Origin: a virus
Length of the DNA: 22,194 nucleotides
Virus genome (UHGV): UHGV-0136179
Direction: 5' to 3' (one strand)
This document shows, piece after piece, positions 3,439-18,356 of the stretch. Made by a program: the position numbers and the translations under genes. The notes under the pieces were generated by a model that saw only the letters and a list, made by a program, of their open reading frames with translations, searched no databases and had not been told where the DNA came from. Position 1 is the stretch's first letter; every line of letters starts with the position of its first letter.

Positions 3439-3710
3439 GTATTAGTATTGAAATTGGCGAACGTTATGTCGTTACCAGTGACAGCTTTCAGTTTATTCTC
3501 CACGAGAAAAAGAGAGCTGAAAGCGGTAAAAACGCCGGTCAGGAATGGCTGGCGGTGGTTGGTTATTACCCGAAATTAAGCCAGCTCGTTTCCGGCCTGA
3601 TGCATCACGATATTCTGACCGGAAGCGCAAAGTCTTTTGCTGATTTAAACGCGCAGGTTGAGCAACTCAGCAAGCGTTGTTCAGAGGCTTTTGGCTCATA
3701 TGGCCGTTAA
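3435..3710 (+). CDS. Hypothetical early protein (orf83 position)
   Basis: 91-aa ORF, GGAGAA SD, overlaps the A start. Confidence 0.45.
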   Translation: MSISIEIGERYVVTSDSFQFILHEKKRAESGKNAGQEWLAVVGYYPKLSQLVSGLMHHDILTGSAKSFADLNAQVEQLSKRCSEAFGSYGR

Positions 3711-5967
3711 AGCCTCCGGGCGTTTTGTCCCTCCGTCAGTATTTGCCGCAGGCACCGGTGAGACGTTTACCGGTGCTTATGCATGGAACGCGCCACGCGA
3801 GGCCGTCGGGCGCGAAAGACCCCTTACACGTGACGAGATGCGTCAGGTGCAAGGTGTTTTATCCACGATTAATCGCCTGCCTTACTTTTTGCGCTCGCTG
3901 TTTACTTCACGCTATGACTACATCCGGCGCAATAAAAGCCCGGTGCACGGGTTTTATTTCCTCACATCCACTTTTCAGCGCCGTTTATGGCCGCGTATTG
4001 AGCGCGTGAATCAGCGCCATGAAATGAATACCGACGCGTCGTTGCTGTTTCTGGCAGAGCGTGACCATTATGCGCGTCTGCCGGGGATGAATGACAAGGA
4101 GCTGAAAAAGTTTGCCGCCCGTATCTCATCGCAGCTTTTCATGATGTATGAGGAACTCTGCGATGCATGGGTTGATGCACATGGCGAGAAAGAATCGCTG
4201 TTTACAGATGAGGCGCAGGCGCATCTGTATGGTCATGTTGCTGGCGCTGCACGTGCTTTCAATATTTCCCCTCTCTACTGGAAAAAATACCGTAAAGGAC
4301 AGATGACCACGAGGCAGGCATATTCTGCCATTGCCCGTCTGTTTAACGATGAGTGGTGGACTCATCAGTTTAAAGGCCAGCGTATGCGCTGGCATGAGGC
4401 GTTACTGATTGCTGTCGGGGAGGTCAATAAAGACCGTTCTCCTTATGCCAGTAAACATGCCATTCGTGATGTGCGTGCGCGCCGCCAGGCAAATCTGGAA
4501 TTTCTTAAATCGTGTGACCTTGAAAACAGGGAAACCGGCGAGCGCATCGACCTTATCAGTAAGGTGATGGGCAGTATTTCTAATCCTGAAATTCGCCGGA
4601 TGGAGCTGATGAACACCATTGCCGGTATTGAGCGTTACGCCGCCGCAGAGGGCGATGTGGGCATGTTTATCACGCTGACCGCGCCGTCAAAGTATCACCC
4701 GACACGTCAGGTCGGAAAAGGCGAAAGTAAAACCGTCCAGCTTAATCACGGCTGGAACGATGAGGCATTTAATCCAAAGGATGCGCAGCGTTATCTCTGC
4801 CGTATCTGGAGCCTGATGCGCACGGCATTCAAGGATAATGATTTACAGGTCTACGGTTTGCGAGTCGTCGAGCCACACCACGACGGAACGCCGCACTGGC
4901 ATATGATGCTTTTTTGTAATCCACGCCAGCGTAACCAGATTATCGAAATCATGCGTCGCTATGCGCTCAAAGAGGATGGCGACGAAAGAGGAGCCGCGCG
5001 AAACCGTTTTCAGGCAAAACACCTTAACCGGGGCGGTGCTGCGGGATATATCGCGAAATACATTTCAAAAAATATCGACGGCTATGCACTGGACGGTCAG
5101 CTCGATAACGATACCGGCAGACCGCTGAAAGATACTGCGGCGGCTGTTACCGCATGGGCGTCAACGTGGCGCATCCCGCAATTTAAAACGGTTGGCCTGC
5201 CGACAATGGGAGCTTACCGTGAGCTACGTAAATTGCCTCGCGGCGTCAGCATTGCTGATGAATTTGACGAACGCGTGGAGGCTGCACGCGCCGCCGCAGA
5301 CAGTGGTGATTTTGCGTTGTATATCAGCGCACAGGGTGGGGCAAATGTTCCGCGTGATTGCCAGACTGTCAGAGTCGCCCGTAGCCCGTCGGATGACGTT
5401 AACGAGTACGAGGAAGAAGTCGAGAGAGTGGTCGGCATTTACGCGCCGCATCTCGGCGCGCGTCATATTCATATCACCAGAACGACGGACTGGCGCATTG
5501 TGCCGAAAGTTCCGGTCGTTGAGCCTTTGACTTTAAAAAGCGGCATCGCCGCGCCTCGGAGTCCTGTCAATAACTGTGGAAAGCTCACCGGTGGTGATAC
5601 TTCGTTACCGGCTCCCACACCTTCTGAACACGCCGCAGCAGTGCTTAATCTGGTTGATGACGGTGTTATCGAATGGAATGACCCGGAGGTCGTGAGGGTG
5701 CTCAGGGGCGCATTAAAACACGGCCTGAGAACACCAAATCGTCAGCAAAGAAACGGAAGCCCGTTAAAACCACATGAAATTGCACCATCGGCCAGGCTGA
5801 CCCGGCCGGAACGATTGCAAATTACCCGTATCCGCGTTGACCTTGCTCAGAACGGTATCAGGCCTCCGCGATGGGAGCTTGAGGCGCTGGCGCGTGGGGC
5901 AACAGTAAATTATGACGGGAAAAAATTCACGTATCCGGTCGCTGATGAGTGGCCGGGATTCACATAA
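3700..5967 (+). CDS. A: Rolling-circle replication initiator gpA (HUH endonuclease superfamily)
   Basis: 755 aa from the ATG at 3700 (the ORF extends to 3658 via a non-ATG). HUH motif PHWHMMLF and tyrosine motif GYIAKYISKNIDGY are visible in the translation. Confidence 0.9.
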   Translation: MAVKASGRFVPPSVFAAGTGETFTGAYAWNAPREAVGRERPLTRDEMRQVQGVLSTINRLPYFLRSLFTSRYDYIRRNKSPVHGFYFLTSTFQRRLWPRIERVNQRHEMNTDASLLFLAERDHYARLPGMNDKELKKFAARISSQLFMMYEELCDAWVDAHGEKESLFTDEAQAHLYGHVAGAARAFNISPLYWKKYRKGQMTTRQAYSAIARLFNDEWWTHQFKGQRMRWHEALLIAVGEVNKDRSPYASKHAIRDVRARRQANLEFLKSCDLENRETGERIDLISKVMGSISNPEIRRMELMNTIAGIERYAAAEGDVGMFITLTAPSKYHPTRQVGKGESKTVQLNHGWNDEAFNPKDAQRYLCRIWSLMRTAFKDNDLQVYGLRVVEPHHDGTPHWHMMLFCNPRQRNQIIEIMRRYALKEDGDERGAARNRFQAKHLNRGGAAGYIAKYISKNIDGYALDGQLDNDTGRPLKDTAAAVTAWASTWRIPQFKTVGLPTMGAYRELRKLPRGVSIADEFDERVEAARAAADSGDFALYISAQGGANVPRDCQTVRVARSPSDDVNEYEEEVERVVGIYAPHLGARHIHITRTTDWRIVPKVPVVEPLTLKSGIAAPRSPVNNCGKLTGGDTSLPAPTPSEHAAAVLNLVDDGVIEWNDPEVVRVLRGALKHGLRTPNRQQRNGSPLKPHEIAPSARLTRPERLQITRIRVDLAQNGIRPPRWELEALARGATVNYDGKKFTYPVADEWPGFT

Positions 5968-6085
5968 ACTGAAATGAACAGCGTTGCAAGTGTGATAAAA
6001 ATCATTATACTGTTTTTATATACAGTACTTTAATCTGGAAAGATGCTATAAATGTATATTTCTATAAAAATATATGGTTTATTGA

Positions 6086-6114
6086 TTGTGTATGCTCACT
6101 ATCAAATTTATACT
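6086..6114 (+). promoter_or_regulatory. Candidate sigma-70 promoter for cargo locus 1 (-35 TTGTGT, 17-bp spacer, -10 TATACT)
   Basis: Lies in the A+T-rich spacer between the A stop and the cargo gene; hexamers only. Confidence 0.25.
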
Positions 6115-6244
6115 CCGCGCGCAATGTTGAGTATGCTTAAGATATAGCGTTTACAATTCCAGGCTTGAAGGCTCGGGTATAGGTAAAAATTGAGTGTTCT
6201 CGGTTGCTTTTCGTGACATAAGAGGACAGCAAAGGAGGTTGAGT

Positions 6245-6715
6245 ATGTACAGCCCATTGAACATCGCGAATAAGTTTATAGAACTTGCTTGCGCGGCTGG
6301 TATGCCAATCACCCAGATGCAGGCACAAAAGCTGACCTATATAGCACATGGTATAAATCTGGGTTACAAAGGCACGCCTTTGTTAACGACACCAGTTTGT
6401 GCATGGCGTTATGGTCCAGTGGTTCCAGTTCTGTATAACCATCTTAAAGTTTATGGCCGTAGTCCCATAACACAACCAATACAAGTTCCATCGGCAATTT
6501 CTCAGGAGTTTGACCCTATGACTGAGCAGTTGCTGCAGAACGTTTATAACGTTTACGGTAAATATACCGCTGAGGATTTATCTGCTTTCACACATCGTGA
6601 AGGTACTCCTTGGAAGCAAGCAATGGATAGTCGTATGGATATCATTCCTGATTCCGTTATTCAGGATTACTATCAAAAGCTGCTACACGGCGATAGCAAT
6701 TGCATCGGACTATGA
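6245..6715 (+). CDS. Panacea/DUF4065-like protein (candidate antitoxin or defence component)
   Basis: ATG at 6245 with perfect AAAGGAGG SD 6 nt upstream; 156 aa. Segment QKLTYIAHGINLGYKGTPLLTTPVCAWRYGPVVPVLYNHLKVYG resembles the DUF4065 core as I recall it (KLQKL.Y.A.G ... W..GPV.P..Y). Located in the A-Q variable slot. Confidence 0.5.
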   Translation: MYSPLNIANKFIELACAAGMPITQMQAQKLTYIAHGINLGYKGTPLLTTPVCAWRYGPVVPVLYNHLKVYGRSPITQPIQVPSAISQEFDPMTEQLLQNVYNVYGKYTAEDLSAFTHREGTPWKQAMDSRMDIIPDSVIQDYYQKLLHGDSNCIGL

Positions 6716-6730
6716 GTCCGAATTAAGATA

Positions 6731-6755
6731 ACCCCGTCTATGTACGGGGTTTTTT
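6731..6755 (+). terminator. Intergenic hairpin plus T6 between the two cargo genes
   Basis: Stem ACCCCGT (6731-6737) / ACGGGGT (6744-6750), 6-nt loop, T-run 6750-6755; the downstream ATG begins at 6756. Confidence 0.55.
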
Positions 6756-7328
6756 ATGCCTGACGATAATAAGAAAGTGACAGCTGAATTTGATAAAGAC
6801 CTTCTCAGACGATTGCAGCAAGCTGAGCAGAATCTGATAACTGCCTCTGCGGCTTTGGGAGATGAGGGCTGTTGGGATGAAGAATCTCATGAGCCTGAGT
6901 CTGTTGAGGACGCTGTTGATGAAATGCAAAAGGAAGAAGAGGATGCTGCGACCATGCAGCGTTTGGATTTATCCAGTCTTAATTTTCAAATTGCTGAATT
7001 GAGTCGCTGTGTTGAAACTATAAGCACTAACCTTGAAAGCGTACAGGCAGAAACCAAAAGAAAAAATGCGGAAACCGACGGCCTGCTTACGGACAATGAG
7101 CTCCGTAGAACTATGGCTGATAAAACATATCAATTCATGATTGTTTGGTGTTGTTTTGTCGGCTGGGTCATATTTATGTATGTATTGAAAAAAGATTTTG
7201 ATCCACCAGAAACAATTATCATTGCGCTTATGGGAACCACAACTGTGAGTATTGTGGGATTGGTTGGGTTTGTTGTTAGTGGTTTGTTCAAAAGCAACAA
7301 TAAACCTTCTGGCGACAATAAAAATTAA
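6756..7328 (+). CDS. Acidic coiled-coil protein with C-terminal two-helix membrane hairpin (candidate toxin/effector)
   Basis: 190 aa. Acidic N-terminus (EESHEPESVEDAVDEMQKEEEDA); hydrophobic segments FMIVWCCFVGWVIFMYVL and IIIALMGTTTVSIVGLVGFVVSGLF; A+T-rich. Start uncertain because it abuts the terminator T-run. Confidence 0.5.
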   Translation: MPDDNKKVTAEFDKDLLRRLQQAEQNLITASAALGDEGCWDEESHEPESVEDAVDEMQKEEEDAATMQRLDLSSLNFQIAELSRCVETISTNLESVQAETKRKNAETDGLLTDNELRRTMADKTYQFMIVWCCFVGWVIFMYVLKKDFDPPETIIIALMGTTTVSIVGLVGFVVSGLFKSNNKPSGDNKN

Positions 7329-7338
7329 TCATCAAAGT

Positions 7339-7363
7339 GGCACCTTTGGGTGCTATTTTTTTT
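7339..7363 (+). terminator. Rho-independent terminator closing cargo locus 1
   Basis: Stem GGCACC/GGTGCT with TTTG loop, followed by T8, 11 nt after the stop at 7328. Confidence 0.55.
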
Positions 7364-7516
7364 GCTTTTTCCGCGATTTCTCTGTTTTTTCCGTGCATCA
7401 TTTGATGCATGAGTTTGAATGTGCTTTAGTCGAGCTCACTTGCTTTCTGCTGCCAATGCTAGCTAGGTTTGACGGTGTTCATGCAACTGCATTAAAACCG
7501 ACCCATGAAGCGGGCG

Positions 7517-7535
7517 GGCGAGGCGGGGAAAGCAC
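7517..7535. other. cos: cos site: 19-nt cohesive-end sequence GGCGAGGCGGGGAAAGCAC
   Basis: Exact match to the P2/186 cohesive end as I recall it; correct position between the A-side cargo and Q; G/T-rich flank at 7536-7680. Confidence 0.75.
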
Positions 7536-7677
7536 TGCGCGCTGGCGGTGGTGCTGATTTTATTTTTTCAGCGTCTGAGCGCGTCGTGATGGCGTTTAGA
7601 TTGTGCGCCGGGGCGTTGGTTTGTCTGCGGGCTGTTTTGCGCGGTGTTGAGCGTGTGAGGGCGTGATGACGGGGTGT

Positions 7678-7699
7678 AAAAAAGCCGCCCGCAGGCGGC
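7678..7699 (-). terminator. Terminator of the leftward P-Q operon
   Basis: On the minus strand, hairpin GCCGCC-(4 nt)-GGCGGC followed by a U6 run, 5 nt after the Q stop. Confidence 0.65.
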
Positions 7700-7704
7700 G
7701 ATGT

Positions 7705-8739
7705 TCAGCCGTTGTCAGTGTCCAGTGAGTAGTTTTTAAAGCGGATGACCTCCTGACCGAGCCAGCCGTTTATCTCGCGGATCCTGTCCTGTAGCGGGAT
7801 AAGCTCATTGCGGACAAAGACCTTTGCCACTTTCTCAATATCACCCAGCGACCCGACGTTCTCCGGCTTGCCGCCCATCAACTGAAAGGGGATGCGGTGC
7901 GCGTCCAGCAGGTCAGCGGCGCTGGCTTTTTTGATATTAAAAAAATCGTCCTTCGTTGCCACTTCACTGAGCGGGATAATTTTAATGCCGTCGGCTTTCC
8001 CCTGTGGGGCATAGAGAAACAGATTTTTAAAGTTATTGCGGCCTTTCGACTTAACCATGTTTTCGCGAAGCATTTCGATATCGTTGCGGTCCTGCACGGC
8101 ATCGGTGACGTACATGATGTATCCGGCATGTGCGCCGTTTTCGTAATACTTGCGGCGGAACAGCGTGGCCGACTCATTCAGCCAGGCAGAGTTAAGGGCG
8201 CTGAGATATTCCGGCAGGCCGTACAGCTCCTGATTGATATCCGGCTCCAGCAGGTGAAACACGGAGCCGGGCGTGAAAGGTGTCGGCTCGTTGAAGGACG
8301 GCACCCACCAGTAAACATCCTCCTCCACGCCACGACGGGTATATTTTGCCGGTGAGGTTTCCAGTCTGATGACCTTACCGGTGGTGCTGTAACGCTTTTC
8401 CAGAAACGCATTACCGAACACCAGAAAATCCAGCACAAAGCGGCTGAAATCCTGCTGGGAAAGCCACGGATGCGGGATAAATGTTGAGGCCAGAATATTA
8501 CGTTTGACGTAAATCGGTGAGCTGTGATGCACGGCAGCACGCAGGCTTTTTGCCAGACCGGTAAAGCTGACCGGTGGCTCATACCATCTGCCGTTACTGA
8601 TGCACTCGACGTAATCCAGAATGTCACGGCGGTCGAGTACCGGCACCGGCTCACCAAAGGTGAATGCCTCCATTTTCGGGGCGCTGGCGGTCATTTTTTT
8701 TGCCGCAGGTTGCGGTGTTTTCCCTTTTTTCTTGCTCAT
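7705..8739 (-). CDS. Q: Portal protein gpQ
   Basis: 344 aa, identical in length to P2 gpQ; leftward, start overlaps the P stop (ATGA); position next to cos. Confidence 0.9.
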   Translation of the reverse strand: MSKKKGKTPQPAAKKMTASAPKMEAFTFGEPVPVLDRRDILDYVECISNGRWYEPPVSFTGLAKSLRAAVHHSSPIYVKRNILASTFIPHPWLSQQDFSRFVLDFLVFGNAFLEKRYSTTGKVIRLETSPAKYTRRGVEEDVYWWVPSFNEPTPFTPGSVFHLLEPDINQELYGLPEYLSALNSAWLNESATLFRRKYYENGAHAGYIMYVTDAVQDRNDIEMLRENMVKSKGRNNFKNLFLYAPQGKADGIKIIPLSEVATKDDFFNIKKASAADLLDAHRIPFQLMGGKPENVGSLGDIEKVAKVFVRNELIPLQDRIREINGWLGQEVIRFKNYSLDTDNG

Positions 8740-14233: not shown

Positions 14234-14515
14234 ATGACAGCAGAAGAAAAAAGCGTCCTGTCGCTTTTCATGATTGGGGTGCTGATTGTTGTCGGCAAGG
14301 TGCTTGCCGGTGGTGAACCCATCACCCCGCGTCTGTTTATCGGGCGCATGTTGCTCGGTGGTTTTGTCTCGATGGTTGCCGGTGTTGTTCTGGTGCAGTT
14401 TCCTGACCTGTCACTGCCTGCGGTGTGCGGCATCGGCTCCATGCTGGGTATCGCCGGTTATCAGGTGATTGAGATTGCCATTCAGCGCCGCTTTAAGGGC
14501 AGGGGGAAACCGTAA
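14234..14515 (+). CDS. Y: Holin gpY
   Basis: 93 aa (P2 gpY is 93 aa); hydrophobic helices and a charged C-terminus; immediately upstream of the endolysin. Confidence 0.85.
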   Translation: MTAEEKSVLSLFMIGVLIVVGKVLAGGEPITPRLFIGRMLLGGFVSMVAGVVLVQFPDLSLPAVCGIGSMLGIAGYQVIEIAIQRRFKGRGKP

Positions 14516-16010: not shown

Positions 16011-16440
16011 TGCCGTCATGGTGCTGAAAACCAGTCCCGAGATGCTGCGGATATTCGTGGATAACGGGAGTATTGCCTCCACACTGGCGACGTCGCTGTC
16101 ATTCGAAAAGCGTTACACGCTCAATGTGATTGTGACCGACTTTACCGGTGATTTTGACCTGCTCATCGTGCCGGTGCTGGCGTGGCTGCGGGAAAATCAG
16201 CCCGACATCATGACCACCGACGCAGGTCAGAAAAAGGGCTTCACGTTTTATGCAGACATCAACAATGACAGCAGCTTTGATATCAGCATCAGCCTGATGC
16301 TGACCGAGCGAACGCTGGTCAGTGAGGTGGATGGCGCGCTGCATGTGAAGAATATCCCGGAACCTCCGCCGCCGGAGCCGGTCACCCGCCCGGTGGAGCT
16401 TTATATCAATGGCGAACTGGTGAGCAAGTGGGATGAATGA
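15973..16440 (+). CDS. R: Tail completion protein gpR
   Basis: 155 aa (P2 gpR is 155 aa). Confidence 0.85.
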   Translation: MLKPDSLRRALTDAVMVLKTSPEMLRIFVDNGSIASTLATSLSFEKRYTLNVIVTDFTGDFDLLIVPVLAWLRENQPDIMTTDAGQKKGFTFYADINNDSSFDISISLMLTERTLVSEVDGALHVKNIPEPPPPEPVTRPVELYINGELVSKWDE

Positions 16441-16891
16441 GTTTAAGCGTTTTGAAGACCGGCTGACCGGACTGATTGAATCGCTGTCACCGTCAGGGCG
16501 TCGGCGACTGGCGGTAGATATTGCGAAGAAACTGCGCCAGCGCCAGCAGCAGCGAATTAAATTACAAAAAGGCCCGGATGGTACGCCGTATGTACCGAGA
16601 AAAAACCAGCCAGTGCGAAATAAGAAAGGCCGGATAAAGCGGGAAATGTTTGTGAAATTACGCACTAACCGGTTTATGAAAGCAACAGGTAGCGAGAGTG
16701 CGGCGGTGGTGGAGTTTGCCAGCGGAGTACAACGAATTGCGCGAGTACATCAATTAGGGCTTAGGGATAAGCCGGGGCGTAATAGTGCTGTGGTGGAATA
16801 TCCTGTTCGTGAGTTATTTGGTTTTGACAAGGAATCTATACAATTGATAGAAAGGGAGTTATTAGTGATTCTATCGAAAGATGTTATATGA
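16433..16891 (+). CDS. S: Tail completion protein gpS
   Basis: 152 aa (P2 gpS is 150 aa); the last ~50 codons become A+T-rich, suggesting the cargo junction lies inside the gene's 3' end. Confidence 0.8.
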   Translation: MNEFKRFEDRLTGLIESLSPSGRRRLAVDIAKKLRQRQQQRIKLQKGPDGTPYVPRKNQPVRNKKGRIKREMFVKLRTNRFMKATGSESAAVVEFASGVQRIARVHQLGLRDKPGRNSAVVEYPVRELFGFDKESIQLIERELLVILSKDVI

Positions 16892-17643
16892 GACGGGTGT
16901 TTGTGGATAAAAAGTTTTCCATTTTGAGAAAAAGAGTAAAGCATTCTCAAAAGAAAGTTATGGATTGTATTATTGCTGACCATAATGCTGATATATGTGT
17001 GTTATGCGGGAGTTCTGACGATATTACTCGTGAGCACATTATTCCTCAGTGGGCCTTTGAGTCAAATGCTGAAAAATCTTTAATTAATAAAAAGAATAAT
17101 CAGTCAACTCATTACATTAAAGCCACTGTACCAGCATGCAGAGTGTGCAATTCTGATTTGCTGGGAGTGTTTGAGTATAACTTGAAGAAATTTCTTACGG
17201 AAAAGAGGGGCGATGAGTTAACAGATTATGAATATGATTGCATCATATGGTGGTTGCAATACATGGGCTTTAAGTTGCAATTAATGGATTTACGGACCCG
17301 CTTTCTCAGGTATAAAGGGGGGGATTATATCCCTTTCCTTGCAAACTTCCCGGTTGCAATGTTTTGGGGGAATGTCGATACGACACCGGAGGATGTCTTC
17401 AGGATTATAAGAAAATCGCGACGCAATCTGATGTCGAAATGGAAGGATAAAAAACATAATTCTTTGATGGTTTTTGAAACATCAAACAAGAGTTTTCATT
17501 TCTTTCATAAGGTTGATGAATTTATTTTTATTGAAATGCCTCAGGTTAAGAAGGCGTTTTTCTTCTTTTTTAATAAAGAATTTGACAGCCATGATTTAGC
17601 TCATGAGGAGTGTATGAAGATTATAGAGAAGTACTACAACTAA
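16888..17643 (+). CDS. HNH-motif nuclease-like protein with uncharacterised C-terminal domain (cargo in the S-V slot)
   Basis: 251 aa. ATG overlaps the S stop (ATGA). Motif CVLCG-(x8)-EHIIPQW-(x)-CRVCN matches the HNH/His-Me finger pattern (CxxC ... [D/E]H..P ... CxxCN). Very A+T-rich against the GC-rich tail genes. Confidence 0.55.
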   Translation: MRRVFVDKKFSILRKRVKHSQKKVMDCIIADHNADICVLCGSSDDITREHIIPQWAFESNAEKSLINKKNNQSTHYIKATVPACRVCNSDLLGVFEYNLKKFLTEKRGDELTDYEYDCIIWWLQYMGFKLQLMDLRTRFLRYKGGDYIPFLANFPVAMFWGNVDTTPEDVFRIIRKSRRNLMSKWKDKKHNSLMVFETSNKSFHFFHKVDEFIFIEMPQVKKAFFFFFNKEFDSHDLAHEECMKIIEKYYN

Positions 17644-17720
17644 TATTTATTATGTTGTGTCACGGCTGACAGAGTCCTCCATGATTGCTGCTGGTATCGT
17701 CCGGCGGCATCCTTCCCGTC

Positions 17721-18356
17721 ATGAACACTCTCGCAAATATTCAGGAACTCGCGCGCGCACTGCGCAACATGATCCGCACCGGCCTTGTCGTCGAAACCAA
17801 CCTTAAAGCCGGTCGCTGCCGTGTGCAGACCGGCGGCATGTGCACCGACTGGCTTCAGTGGCTGACCTGTCGTGCCGGGCGTTCGCGCACATGGTGGGCA
17901 CCTTCCGTGGGGGAGCAGGTGCTGATTCTGGCCGTGGGCGGTGAACTTGACACGGCGTTTGTTCTGCCGGGGATTTATTCCGGCGATAACCCCGCGCCGT
18001 CTGCGTCGGCGGATGCCCTGCATATCCGTTTCCCTGACGGGGCGGTGATTGAGTATGAACCCGAAACCAGTGCACTGACGGTAAGCGGAATTAAAACGGC
18101 CAGCGTGACGGCTTCTGATTCTGTTACTGCCACGGTGCCGGTGGTCATTGTGAAAGCATCAACCCGCGTCACCCTGGACACACCGGAGGTGGTCTGCACC
18201 AACAGGCTGATTACCGGCACGCTGGAAGTGCAGAAGGGCGGGACGATGCACGGCAACATTGAACACACCGGCGGTGAACTCTCATCAAACGGTAAGGTAC
18301 TGCATACCCATAAACACCCCGGCGACAGTGGCGGCACAACAGGGGGACCTCTATGA
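17721..18356 (+). CDS. V: Baseplate spike gpV
   Basis: 211 aa from the ATG at 17721 (P2 gpV is 211 aa); the ORF extends to 17685 via a non-ATG. Confidence 0.9.
   Translation: MNTLANIQELARALRNMIRTGLVVETNLKAGRCRVQTGGMCTDWLQWLTCRAGRSRTWWAPSVGEQVLILAVGGELDTAFVLPGIYSGDNPAPSASADALHIRFPDGAVIEYEPETSALTVSGIKTASVTASDSVTATVPVVIVKASTRVTLDTPEVVCTNRLITGTLEVQKGGTMHGNIEHTGGELSSNGKVLHTHKHPGDSGGTTGGPL

Follow-up and report, generated by a model that had tools for sequence, protein, structure and literature searches.

A PanA/PanT toxin-antitoxin pair in the old/tin slot of a P2-type prophage, with a predicted LexA-controlled promoter and a conserved hairpin before the toxin gene

What does a P2-type prophage carry where P2 has old and tin, and when would such cargo be expressed? 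We addressed these questions in the viral genome UHGV-0136179, a 22,194-nucleotide stretch of DNA that we analyzed whole (here called the window) and that is a P2-type prophage with Cox/C immunity. In P2 itself, orf91, tin, and old fill the interval between gene A and the cohesive-end site cos; here, that interval spans 5968-7516 and holds two same-strand open reading frames (ORFs), gene 1 and gene 2. The end of gene A, the cos sequence, and portal gene Q (coordinates in Table 1) place the module in the P2 old/tin slot, and no exact cos match arose in 100 shuffles. GC content falls to 0.38-0.44 over 5800-7400, compared with 0.52-0.58 on both flanks. A first-pass annotation of this DNA had described an A+T-rich cargo module in the old/tin slot, with these two ORFs and a perfect Shine-Dalgarno sequence before the first, and all of this was borne out. 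The pair is conserved and codiverges across genera and thus does not represent chance ORFs. Its protein sequences indicate that the locus is very probably a PanAT type II toxin-antitoxin (TA) system with a membrane-type PanT, and we refer to the genes as panA and panT.

The gene 1 product is a stand-alone Panacea-domain protein, as the first-pass annotation had supposed from its resemblance to DUF4065. In a profile search, it matched Pfam SocA_Panacea (PF13274, formerly DUF4065) with an E value of 5e-18 and 66.5 bits (cutoff, 25.7), over positions 2-113 of the 113-position model, and it matched phrog_1281 at E 1e-47. RefSeq protein WP_000287234.1 differs from the window PanA by one residue. 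The motifs QKL.Y.AHG, AW.YGPV, and LS..TH and the C-proximal residue W123 are invariant among 19 PanA proteins that we aligned from the collected loci. The score against the NCBIfam SocA equivalog NF047745 was 98.6 bits, below the cutoff of 190, so PanA is not SocA proper, and a search of PanA against PDB sequences returned nothing. We considered a GTG start at 6194 and dropped it because the ATG at 6245 has the perfect Shine-Dalgarno sequence, which is unchanged in five aligned leaders, and because homologues begin with MYSP. All enterobacterial PanAs in the alignment end in C-x-G-L-COOH (NCIGL in the window, 6701-6712), and homologues from alphaproteobacteria and acidobacteria lack this tail. 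Its function could be recognition by a protease, which would set the lability of the antitoxin.

PanA/PanT pairs were defined by Kurata et al. in 2022 in PNAS, with nine pairs validated, three of them with membrane toxins (PMC8832971). One validated pair comes from E. coli STEC O31 (PanA WP_000287252.1 and PanT WP_000019185.1, toxin cluster T3) and has the antitoxin gene first, with 22 bp between the genes (PMC8832971). Its PanT causes strong depolarization, SYTOX uptake, and a nonselective shutdown of transcription, translation, and replication, and PanA forms complexes with cognate toxins (PMC8832971). We located both validated accessions in E. coli STEC1588. The window PanA is 45% identical to the STEC O31 PanA over its full length (E 8e-46), and the C-terminal 95 residues of the window PanT are 44% identical to the STEC O31 PanT (BLASTP, E 1e-27). 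The validated PanT joins a 21-sequence PanT alignment and shares its 26 invariant columns; in a further homologue alignment, its presumed counterpart is a 182-aa E. coli cluster (P0093). The PanAT assignment thus draws on the Panacea domain and on the fact that each protein has a validated homologue in the STEC O31 pair.

The two loci also agree in layout. Each has a stand-alone Panacea antitoxin of 156-157 aa directly upstream of a toxin of 182-190 aa, both toxins combine an acidic N-half with a C-terminal module that is nearly the same (DN.LR..MA...WC.FV...ALLGT.T.SIVGLVGFVVSGLFKS), and each pair is prophage associated with LexA-like boxes upstream. The STEC O31 locus differs in that its toxin has an N-half that cannot be aligned with that of the window, its prophage is not of the P2 type, and its boxes are weaker. 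The pairing, which the first-pass annotation did not recognize as a named system, therefore has a name, PanAT of the T3 cluster (PMC8832971), and it is also system 122 of Rousset et al. 2022 (PMC9122126).

The N-half of PanT is acidic, variable, and helical or disordered, with 25 D/E versus 8 K/R in residues 1-95 and an isoelectric point of 4.2 for residues 1-120. It is followed by two hydrophobic 19-residue segments, transmembrane helix 1 (TM1) at about 125-146 and TM2 at about 152-178 (ALMGTTTVSIVGLVGFVVSGLFKS), an acidic-then-hydrophobic arrangement that the first-pass annotation had read correctly. Topology was predicted with hydropathy windows and the positive-inside rule: the loop KKDFDPPE is short and basic residues lie on the outer flanks, which points to an N-in/C-in hairpin. 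An AlphaFold2 model based on 69 homologues places helices at 5-35, 60-145, and 152-180, with disorder in the acidic stretch 36-59. Model confidence is low (mean predicted local distance difference test [pLDDT] score, 64; predicted template modeling [pTM] score, 0.31), with acceptable values for the TM hairpin only (pLDDT, 74-88). The earlier proposal of an N-terminal coiled coil thus gains predicted helices, but at low confidence and with weak, subthreshold matches only to coiled-coil families; a coiled coil in this half of the protein is plausible.

Family searches placed PanT in phrog_26171 (E 1e-135). DUF2975 (PF11188) scored 22.1 bits, under its gathering cutoff of 27, and matched the TM hairpin only (127-179); this subthreshold hairpin match is the whole basis of the RefSeq name "DUF2975" for gene 2. 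A PanT profile gave only noise against PDB sequences (E 0.25 or worse). A database search with PanT returned 72 homologues, which we used for family alignments. In these, the N-half varies, while the motif D113-N-x-L-R-x-x-M-A...F-M..W-C.F-V and the TM2 motif A-L-x-G-T-x-T-x-S-I-x-G-L-V-G-F-V-V-S-G-L-F-K-S are invariant or nearly so. Some database PanT entries (e.g., P0042 and P0043; locus L024, 3985-4040) carry a false N-terminal extension (MISPVTLRGFFLM...), which is the intergenic hairpin described below in translation; the internal Met is the real PanT start.

Relatives of the pair are widespread. In all of the at least 25 loci with upstream sequence, drawn from several phyla, panA lies directly upstream of panT. 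The pair occurs in Buttiauxella, Pectobacterium, Erwinia, Salmonella, Enterobacter, Pantoea, Cronobacter, Serratia, Klebsiella, and Providencia, and also in Caulobacter, Methylocystis, Niveispirillum, and metagenome-assembled genomes of Acidobacteriota/Bryobacterales. PanA and PanT identities fall together from locus to locus (e.g., 90/75, 79/66, 61/48, 57/38, and 49/43%), as expected of cognate partners. Among complete E. coli genomes, 11 of 5,426 carry the module, always in this slot, annotated as "Panacea domain-containing protein" and "DUF2975 domain-containing protein." Most enterobacterial copies lie in the A-to-portal hotspot of P2/186-family prophages of several genera; the comparison of this slot across P2-like prophages that the first-pass annotation had proposed therefore shows PanAT recurring between A and cos across genera. 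The module is absent from the GenBank phage collection, as searched by megablast.

Hotspot copies often follow a tum-like gene of 59-66 aa, with or without dinI, and often stand beside a second gene of defense type, encoding a reverse transcriptase (RT), AIPR, KAP NTPase, DUF4145, or DEAD helicase (L018-L021, L024-L026, L029, and L030). These arrangements suggest a hotspot assembled from modules behind one SOS promoter. Other settings were also seen. In Providencia (L022/L023, 3507-4495), the pair lies between a late antiterminator (Antiterm) and a holin in a lambdoid prophage, a classic moron site, and has neither a LexA box nor an intergenic hairpin. The STEC O31 pair (L002, 3652-5411) occupies one end of a region that resembles a prophage (PrtN activator, exonuclease, and yfdP/Q/R) and adjoins a truncated tRNA-dihydrouridine synthase gene (dusA fragment); it is marked "NotPhage" in the data set of the source paper (PMC8832971). 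T3-type PanT homologues occur in Caulobacter (L009 and L010), preceded by a Panacea gene where the contig extends far enough to show it; Caulobacter is the genus whose unrelated SocAB gave the Panacea domain its name.

Neither the family nor this exact pair is new. The family is named and has been characterized through the 45%/44% homologue, and Rousset et al. list "DUF4065 + hypothetical: WP_000287234 + WP_001112381" in Table S5A and, in Table S5B, P2-hotspot system 122 "DUF4065" with 24 occurrences and the comment "2 TM in protein 1" (PMC9122126). System 122 and the window have identical PanT sequences. The 137-aa "PanA" in NCBI and in Table S5B starts at the internal Met20. The corrected annotation of the locus is PanA/PanT instead of "DUF2975."

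What sets this locus apart is how it appears to be controlled. A scan of 5900-7750 called a single promoter-like site, the sigma-70-like promoter in the leader of panA, and a predicted LexA box overlaps its -10 element. The two mismatches of the box to the consensus both fall in the central AT-rich spacer. None of 100 window shuffles produced a box with three or fewer mismatches, and the box is the only CTGT-N8-ACAG in the window. Related loci share this -35/-10-plus-box layout, as does p95, an annotated promoter of phage 186. In E. coli, the 290-bp leader with the box was found only alongside this cargo. Because the box covers the promoter -10, repression in undamaged lysogens and induction by the SOS response would be expected, and we consider it likely that LexA represses the operon.

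The position of the boxes among relatives is consistent with this prediction. Across 264 kb of collected loci, there are 25 boxes of at least 15/20, all upstream of panA or of tum/dinI-panAT with one exception, the annotated 186 p95 site, which precedes tum-orf97. All enterobacterial loci except the lambdoid Providencia copy have boxes of this quality, including three contexts outside the P2 hotspot (L004, L027, and L028). The box lies at -232 to -247 from panA in the window, Buttiauxella, Salmonella, and two further loci (L030 and L031), at -382 in Erwinia, and at -409 in Pectobacterium, and it lies upstream of tum/dinI in 186-like loci. The STEC O31 pair (L004, 395-545) has boxes at -141, -118, and -37 (15/20, 14/20, and 14/20), just downstream of a consensus TTGACA/TATAAT promoter.

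The leader between the box and panA contains a conserved block (6083-6125), with -35 TTGTGT (6086-6091), a 17-nt spacer, -10 TATACT (6109-6114), and a GC-rich discriminator, CCGCGCGCAAT. Its hexamers and the CCGCNCGCAAT motif are kept, with variation in the spacer, in five leaders whose PanA proteins are 79-100% identical. The promoter scan passed over this block because its -35 matches at only three of six positions. Five loci share two leader blocks, GATTG(C/T)GTATG..TTATCAAATTTATACTCCGCNCGCAAT (6083-6125) and AATTTGAGNGTTCNCNG (6200-6220); the former might act either as an additional promoter, its discriminator being GC rich, or as an anti-Shine-Dalgarno element (CUCC). Evidence for a conserved RNA fold across the 220-nt leader was weak (-8 kcal/mol, with an unfavorable covariation term). 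A leader ORF at 6052-6147 (31 aa) was rejected, as it has a premature stop in L006, the only relative examined. No ORF of at least 40 aa lies on the plus strand over 5968-6193, and no Tum is encoded there.

A second candidate control element lies between the genes, where a hairpin abuts the panT start codon. Its predicted fold has a free energy of -17.1 kcal/mol (z, -3.2), and a terminator scan flagged it. The 3' arm of the stem holds the only G-run (GGGG, -10 to -7) suited to serve as the panT Shine-Dalgarno sequence. Nine distinct loci keep the hairpin, with stems that differ in sequence (e.g., CCCCGC/GCGGGG, TCCCGT/ACGGGA, and GCCTCG/CGAGGC), and in all nine the sole purine-rich run before the panT ATG (GGGG or GAGG) is the 3' arm. 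Over these loci, 72 of 72 cells are paired, and compensatory double changes are seen at four of the eight pairs, a level of covariation reached by none of 500 shuffles; partner columns slid out of register pair at 35-56%. Seven of the nine hairpins have a U-run and thus resemble intrinsic terminators, and two (L025 and L029) do not have a clean one. On this evidence, we lean toward the view that the hairpin is an attenuator that limits toxin synthesis through partial termination and occlusion of the ribosome-binding site (RBS), in which case PanA would be in excess of PanT.

The predicted operon ends in an intrinsic terminator downstream of panT (-14.6 kcal/mol; z, -3.7), and none of 200 shuffles was as stable. 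The module had earlier been described as bracketed by terminators. Terminator-like stems are indeed present at 6730-6751 and 7334-7359, but the scan found no such site between gene A and panA, so the left-hand bracket falls away. An Rfam search of 5900-7750 gave only subthreshold matches, at the terminator (PhrS, 21 bits against a gathering cutoff of 37).

Table 1. Positions of features in the A-cos module and in the rest of the prophage
Feature	Position	Strand	Details
Integrase	186-1196	minus	
Helix-turn-helix repressor	1236-1529	minus	
Cox	1682-1954		
Gene A, replication endonuclease	3658-5967		Pfam Phage_GPA, E 1e-123
Sigma-70-like promoter	5984-6011	plus	-35 TTGCAA 5984-5989; 16-nt spacer; -10 TATACT 6006-6011
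LexA (SOS) box, predicted	6008-6027		TACTGTTTTTATATACAGTA; overlaps -10; 18/20 versus consensus TACTGTATATATATACAGTA
Conserved leader block	6083-6125	plus	GATTGTGTATG...TATCAAATTTATACTCCGCGCGCAAT; possible second promoter
Shine-Dalgarno sequence of panA	6232-6239	plus	AAGGAGGT; 5 nt before ATG
panA (gene 1)	6245-6715	plus	156-aa stand-alone Panacea-domain antitoxin; no extra N-terminal domain
Intergenic hairpin	6730-6755	plus	AACCCCGT-ctatgt-ACGGGGTT then UUUU; stem 6730-6751; abuts panT ATG
panT (gene 2)	6756-7328	plus	190-aa toxin (by homology); WP_001112381.1
Intrinsic terminator	7334-7367	plus	Stem 7334-7359, then T-run; ends operon
cos cohesive-end sequence	7517-7535	plus	GGCGAGGCGGGGAAAGCAC; exact P2 match; right boundary of hotspot
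Portal gene Q	7705-8739	minus	Terminase next
Phage's own holin	14234-14515		In late genes; Phage_holin_3_2, E 3e-42

The layout of the module resembles that of the SOS operon of phage 186 (GenBank U32222), which is annotated in the order LexA-p95, tum, t95a ("partial termination"), orf97, t95b, and cos. Its p95 is annotated for "SOS-dependent transcription of SOS operon" and its orf97 with "expression from plasmid blocks 186 infection." Each of the two operons is located immediately downstream of gene A, ahead of cos, and has over its -10 a LexA box that matches equally well in both (18/20). Each comprises two genes with a hairpin between them (the annotated partial terminator in 186) and a terminator before cos. 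The genes themselves are unrelated, those of 186 being the antirepressor gene tum and orf97, and the window has P2-type Cox/C immunity and no tum. Judged by its predicted elements, the window keeps the SOS-operon architecture, with panA and panT replacing tum and orf97.

Comparison with other systems shows a different mix of features in each case. The pair shares its hotspot, small size, and low GC content with P2 old/tin and other A-Q hotspot systems, yet its sequence is unrelated to those of old, tin, and the validated Rst systems. Transcription of old and tin runs leftward from a promoter close to cos, whereas panAT would be transcribed rightward from the predicted LexA-controlled promoter by gene A. 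E. coli tisB/istR-1, dinQ/agrB, and hokE are SOS-induced membrane toxin systems in which a LexA-controlled promoter is combined with RNA structure that restrains translation; these are type I systems, with RNA antitoxins and toxins of 18-50 aa. The window pair shares with them a predicted LexA-controlled promoter, a predicted membrane-depolarizing toxin, and a predicted RNA-structure restraint, but it has a protein (Panacea) antitoxin and a toxin with a 120-residue cytoplasmic domain. With Caulobacter SocAB, a type VI TA system, it shares the Panacea domain in the antitoxin, but the partner here is a two-TM protein rather than SocB. SocA is a ClpXP adaptor and not a direct neutralizer.

Taking these lines together, we consider it probable that the locus is a bicistronic PanAT operon, carried as A-cos cargo of a P2-type prophage, that is SOS regulated and has a hairpin-throttled toxin. 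By homology, PanT would form an N-in/C-in hairpin of two helices in the inner membrane, and free PanT would depolarize and permeabilize the membrane and halt all macromolecular synthesis. PanA would neutralize PanT by direct binding; a different membrane PanT is neutralized directly by a Panacea domain that stands alone, through the region and short helix before the TM segment (PMC10440598). By analogy, the likely contact of PanA is the invariant juxtamembrane helix before TM1 with the adjacent N-terminal region. LexA would repress the operon in undamaged lysogens, and the SOS response would induce it. The hairpin would end some transcripts after panA and hide the panT RBS in the rest, giving an excess of PanA. 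As to role, we speculate that the pair may be an abortive or competition device, armed by DNA damage or infection, that benefits the prophage, rather than a housekeeping phage gene. The hotspot context and the neighboring defense genes suggest abortive infection or interphage competition, and the SOS wiring suggests arming by damage, by induction of a coresident prophage, or by infection.

Several points weigh against this account. Experiments on toxicity, rescue by PanA, and complex formation exist only for the 45%/44% homologue, with whose toxin the N-terminal 85 residues of PanT cannot be aligned; for the window pair, we infer toxicity, neutralization, LexA binding, and termination. The accessions and protein sequences of the pair are not among the cloned and tested systems in Rousset Table S2. 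The first-pass guess at function was right in kind, a Panacea antitoxin beside a membrane-active toxin (by homology) as hotspot cargo, but the search of PADLOC-DB v2 found no match for PanA and, for PanT, only E 0.052 to a CARF_TM model. Although the P2-like A-Q hotspot is a reservoir of anti-phage systems, it also holds nondefense cargo, with a partition system there in about a quarter of P2-like phages (PMC9122126). At the level of regulation, the block at 6086-6114, which follows the LexA box, could drive expression independently of LexA as a second promoter, and the two hairpins with no clean U-run may mean that termination is not the conserved role. The validated STEC O31 pair has no hairpin (its 22-nt spacer has an exposed Shine-Dalgarno sequence, AGGGA), and neither does the Providencia pair, so the hairpin characterizes the hotspot clade and not PanAT at large.

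Three other explanations have to be set against these data. The pair might be purely an addiction or stabilization module that kills cells losing the prophage or its cargo, with no role in defense or competition. The canonical TA arrangement of two genes, antitoxin ahead of toxin, would suit this, as would the maintenance functions housed in the P2 hotspot and the absence of a defense-model match; likewise, our literature search found no phage-defense assay of a membrane-type PanAT. However, stable inheritance is already assured for an integrated P2-type prophage; the module stands repeatedly beside genes of recognized defense types (RT, AIPR, KAP NTPase, DUF4145, and DEAD helicase) in the same hotspot; and LexA control with a throttled toxin would be unneeded for postsegregational killing. 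We therefore regard pure addiction as improbable. Far less probable still is an accessory of lysis or exclusion at prophage induction, in which PanT is holin-like or acts in superinfection exclusion and PanA is antiholin-like. PanT does have a class-II-holin-like topology (two TM segments, N-in/C-in, and a charged C-tail), its expression is predicted to be tied to SOS, the Providencia pair is a neighbor of a holin gene, and the distal gene of the 186 SOS operon, orf97, which occupies the slot of panT, blocks 186 infection. But the prophage has its own holin, which makes such a role unlikely, and PanT matches no holin family in Pfam and, at 190 aa with a 120-residue cytoplasmic domain, is unlike holins. 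To our knowledge, P2-type prophages are not SOS inducible. The PanT homologue, moreover, acts as a TA toxin neutralized by PanA (PMC8832971).

The regulatory reading could instead be wrong, with the LexA box a 186-type p95 relic at a recombination boundary, a constitutive promoter downstream of it, and a hairpin that is stabilizing or decorative. The fact that the box precedes tum/dinI rather than panA in many relatives fits this alternative, as do the -35/-10-like block between box and panA and the two hairpins with no clean U-run. Against it, PanAT loci outside the P2 hotspot have boxes of their own within unrelated flanks, namely, the STEC O31 pair and an Enterobacter locus (L028, box at -132 from panA); the window box equals the annotated 186 site in quality, while P2 itself, with old/tin, has no such box; and the hairpin is maintained by compensatory changes. 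We judge this alternative unlikely, although less so than pure addiction, and continue to favor the SOS-regulated, hairpin-throttled operon.

The LexA operator on the promoter and the conserved hairpin at the toxin gene look new. LexA and SOS are not mentioned in either the Kurata (PMC8832971) or the Rousset (PMC9122126) paper, and in the literature we searched we found no description, for PanAT, of a LexA box, of the hairpin, or of the cross-genus recurrence between A and cos. The authors of the family papers proposed that Panacea senses unknown cues (PMC10440598). To the question of the role and trigger of Panacea TA systems, this locus brings a natural context (the P2 defense hotspot), a predicted LexA/SOS input, and a ratio-setting element in cis. 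If LexA control is true, this PanAT clade would join the SOS-induced membrane toxins, and some of the P2/186 hotspot would be silent until DNA is damaged, so that defense screens with uninduced native promoters could miss such systems. The residual interest of the locus thus lies in its SOS-operon wiring and covarying attenuator, as testable hypotheses on when a Panacea TA system is deployed.

A broader proposal is tentative and, as a whole, doubtful. T3-type PanAT of enterobacterial prophages might form a class of DNA-damage-armed membrane TA systems, silenced by LexA in healthy lysogens, switched on by SOS, and used in interprophage competition or abortive infection at induction instead of in constitutive lysogenic conversion. 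The hairpin would fix the PanA excess, PanA would be a sensor that sets PanT free when inactivated, and the segment after gene A would be an exchangeable "SOS operon" slot in the P2/186 family.

The window has a second low-GC insert, at 16888-17643 on the plus strand (GC content 0.35-0.40 versus about 0.56 on its flanks), which consists of a 251-aa ORF between the tail genes S (16433-16891) and V (17685-18356). This ORF matched no Pfam or PADLOC family and is probably a further cargo gene, in the P2 orf30 slot.

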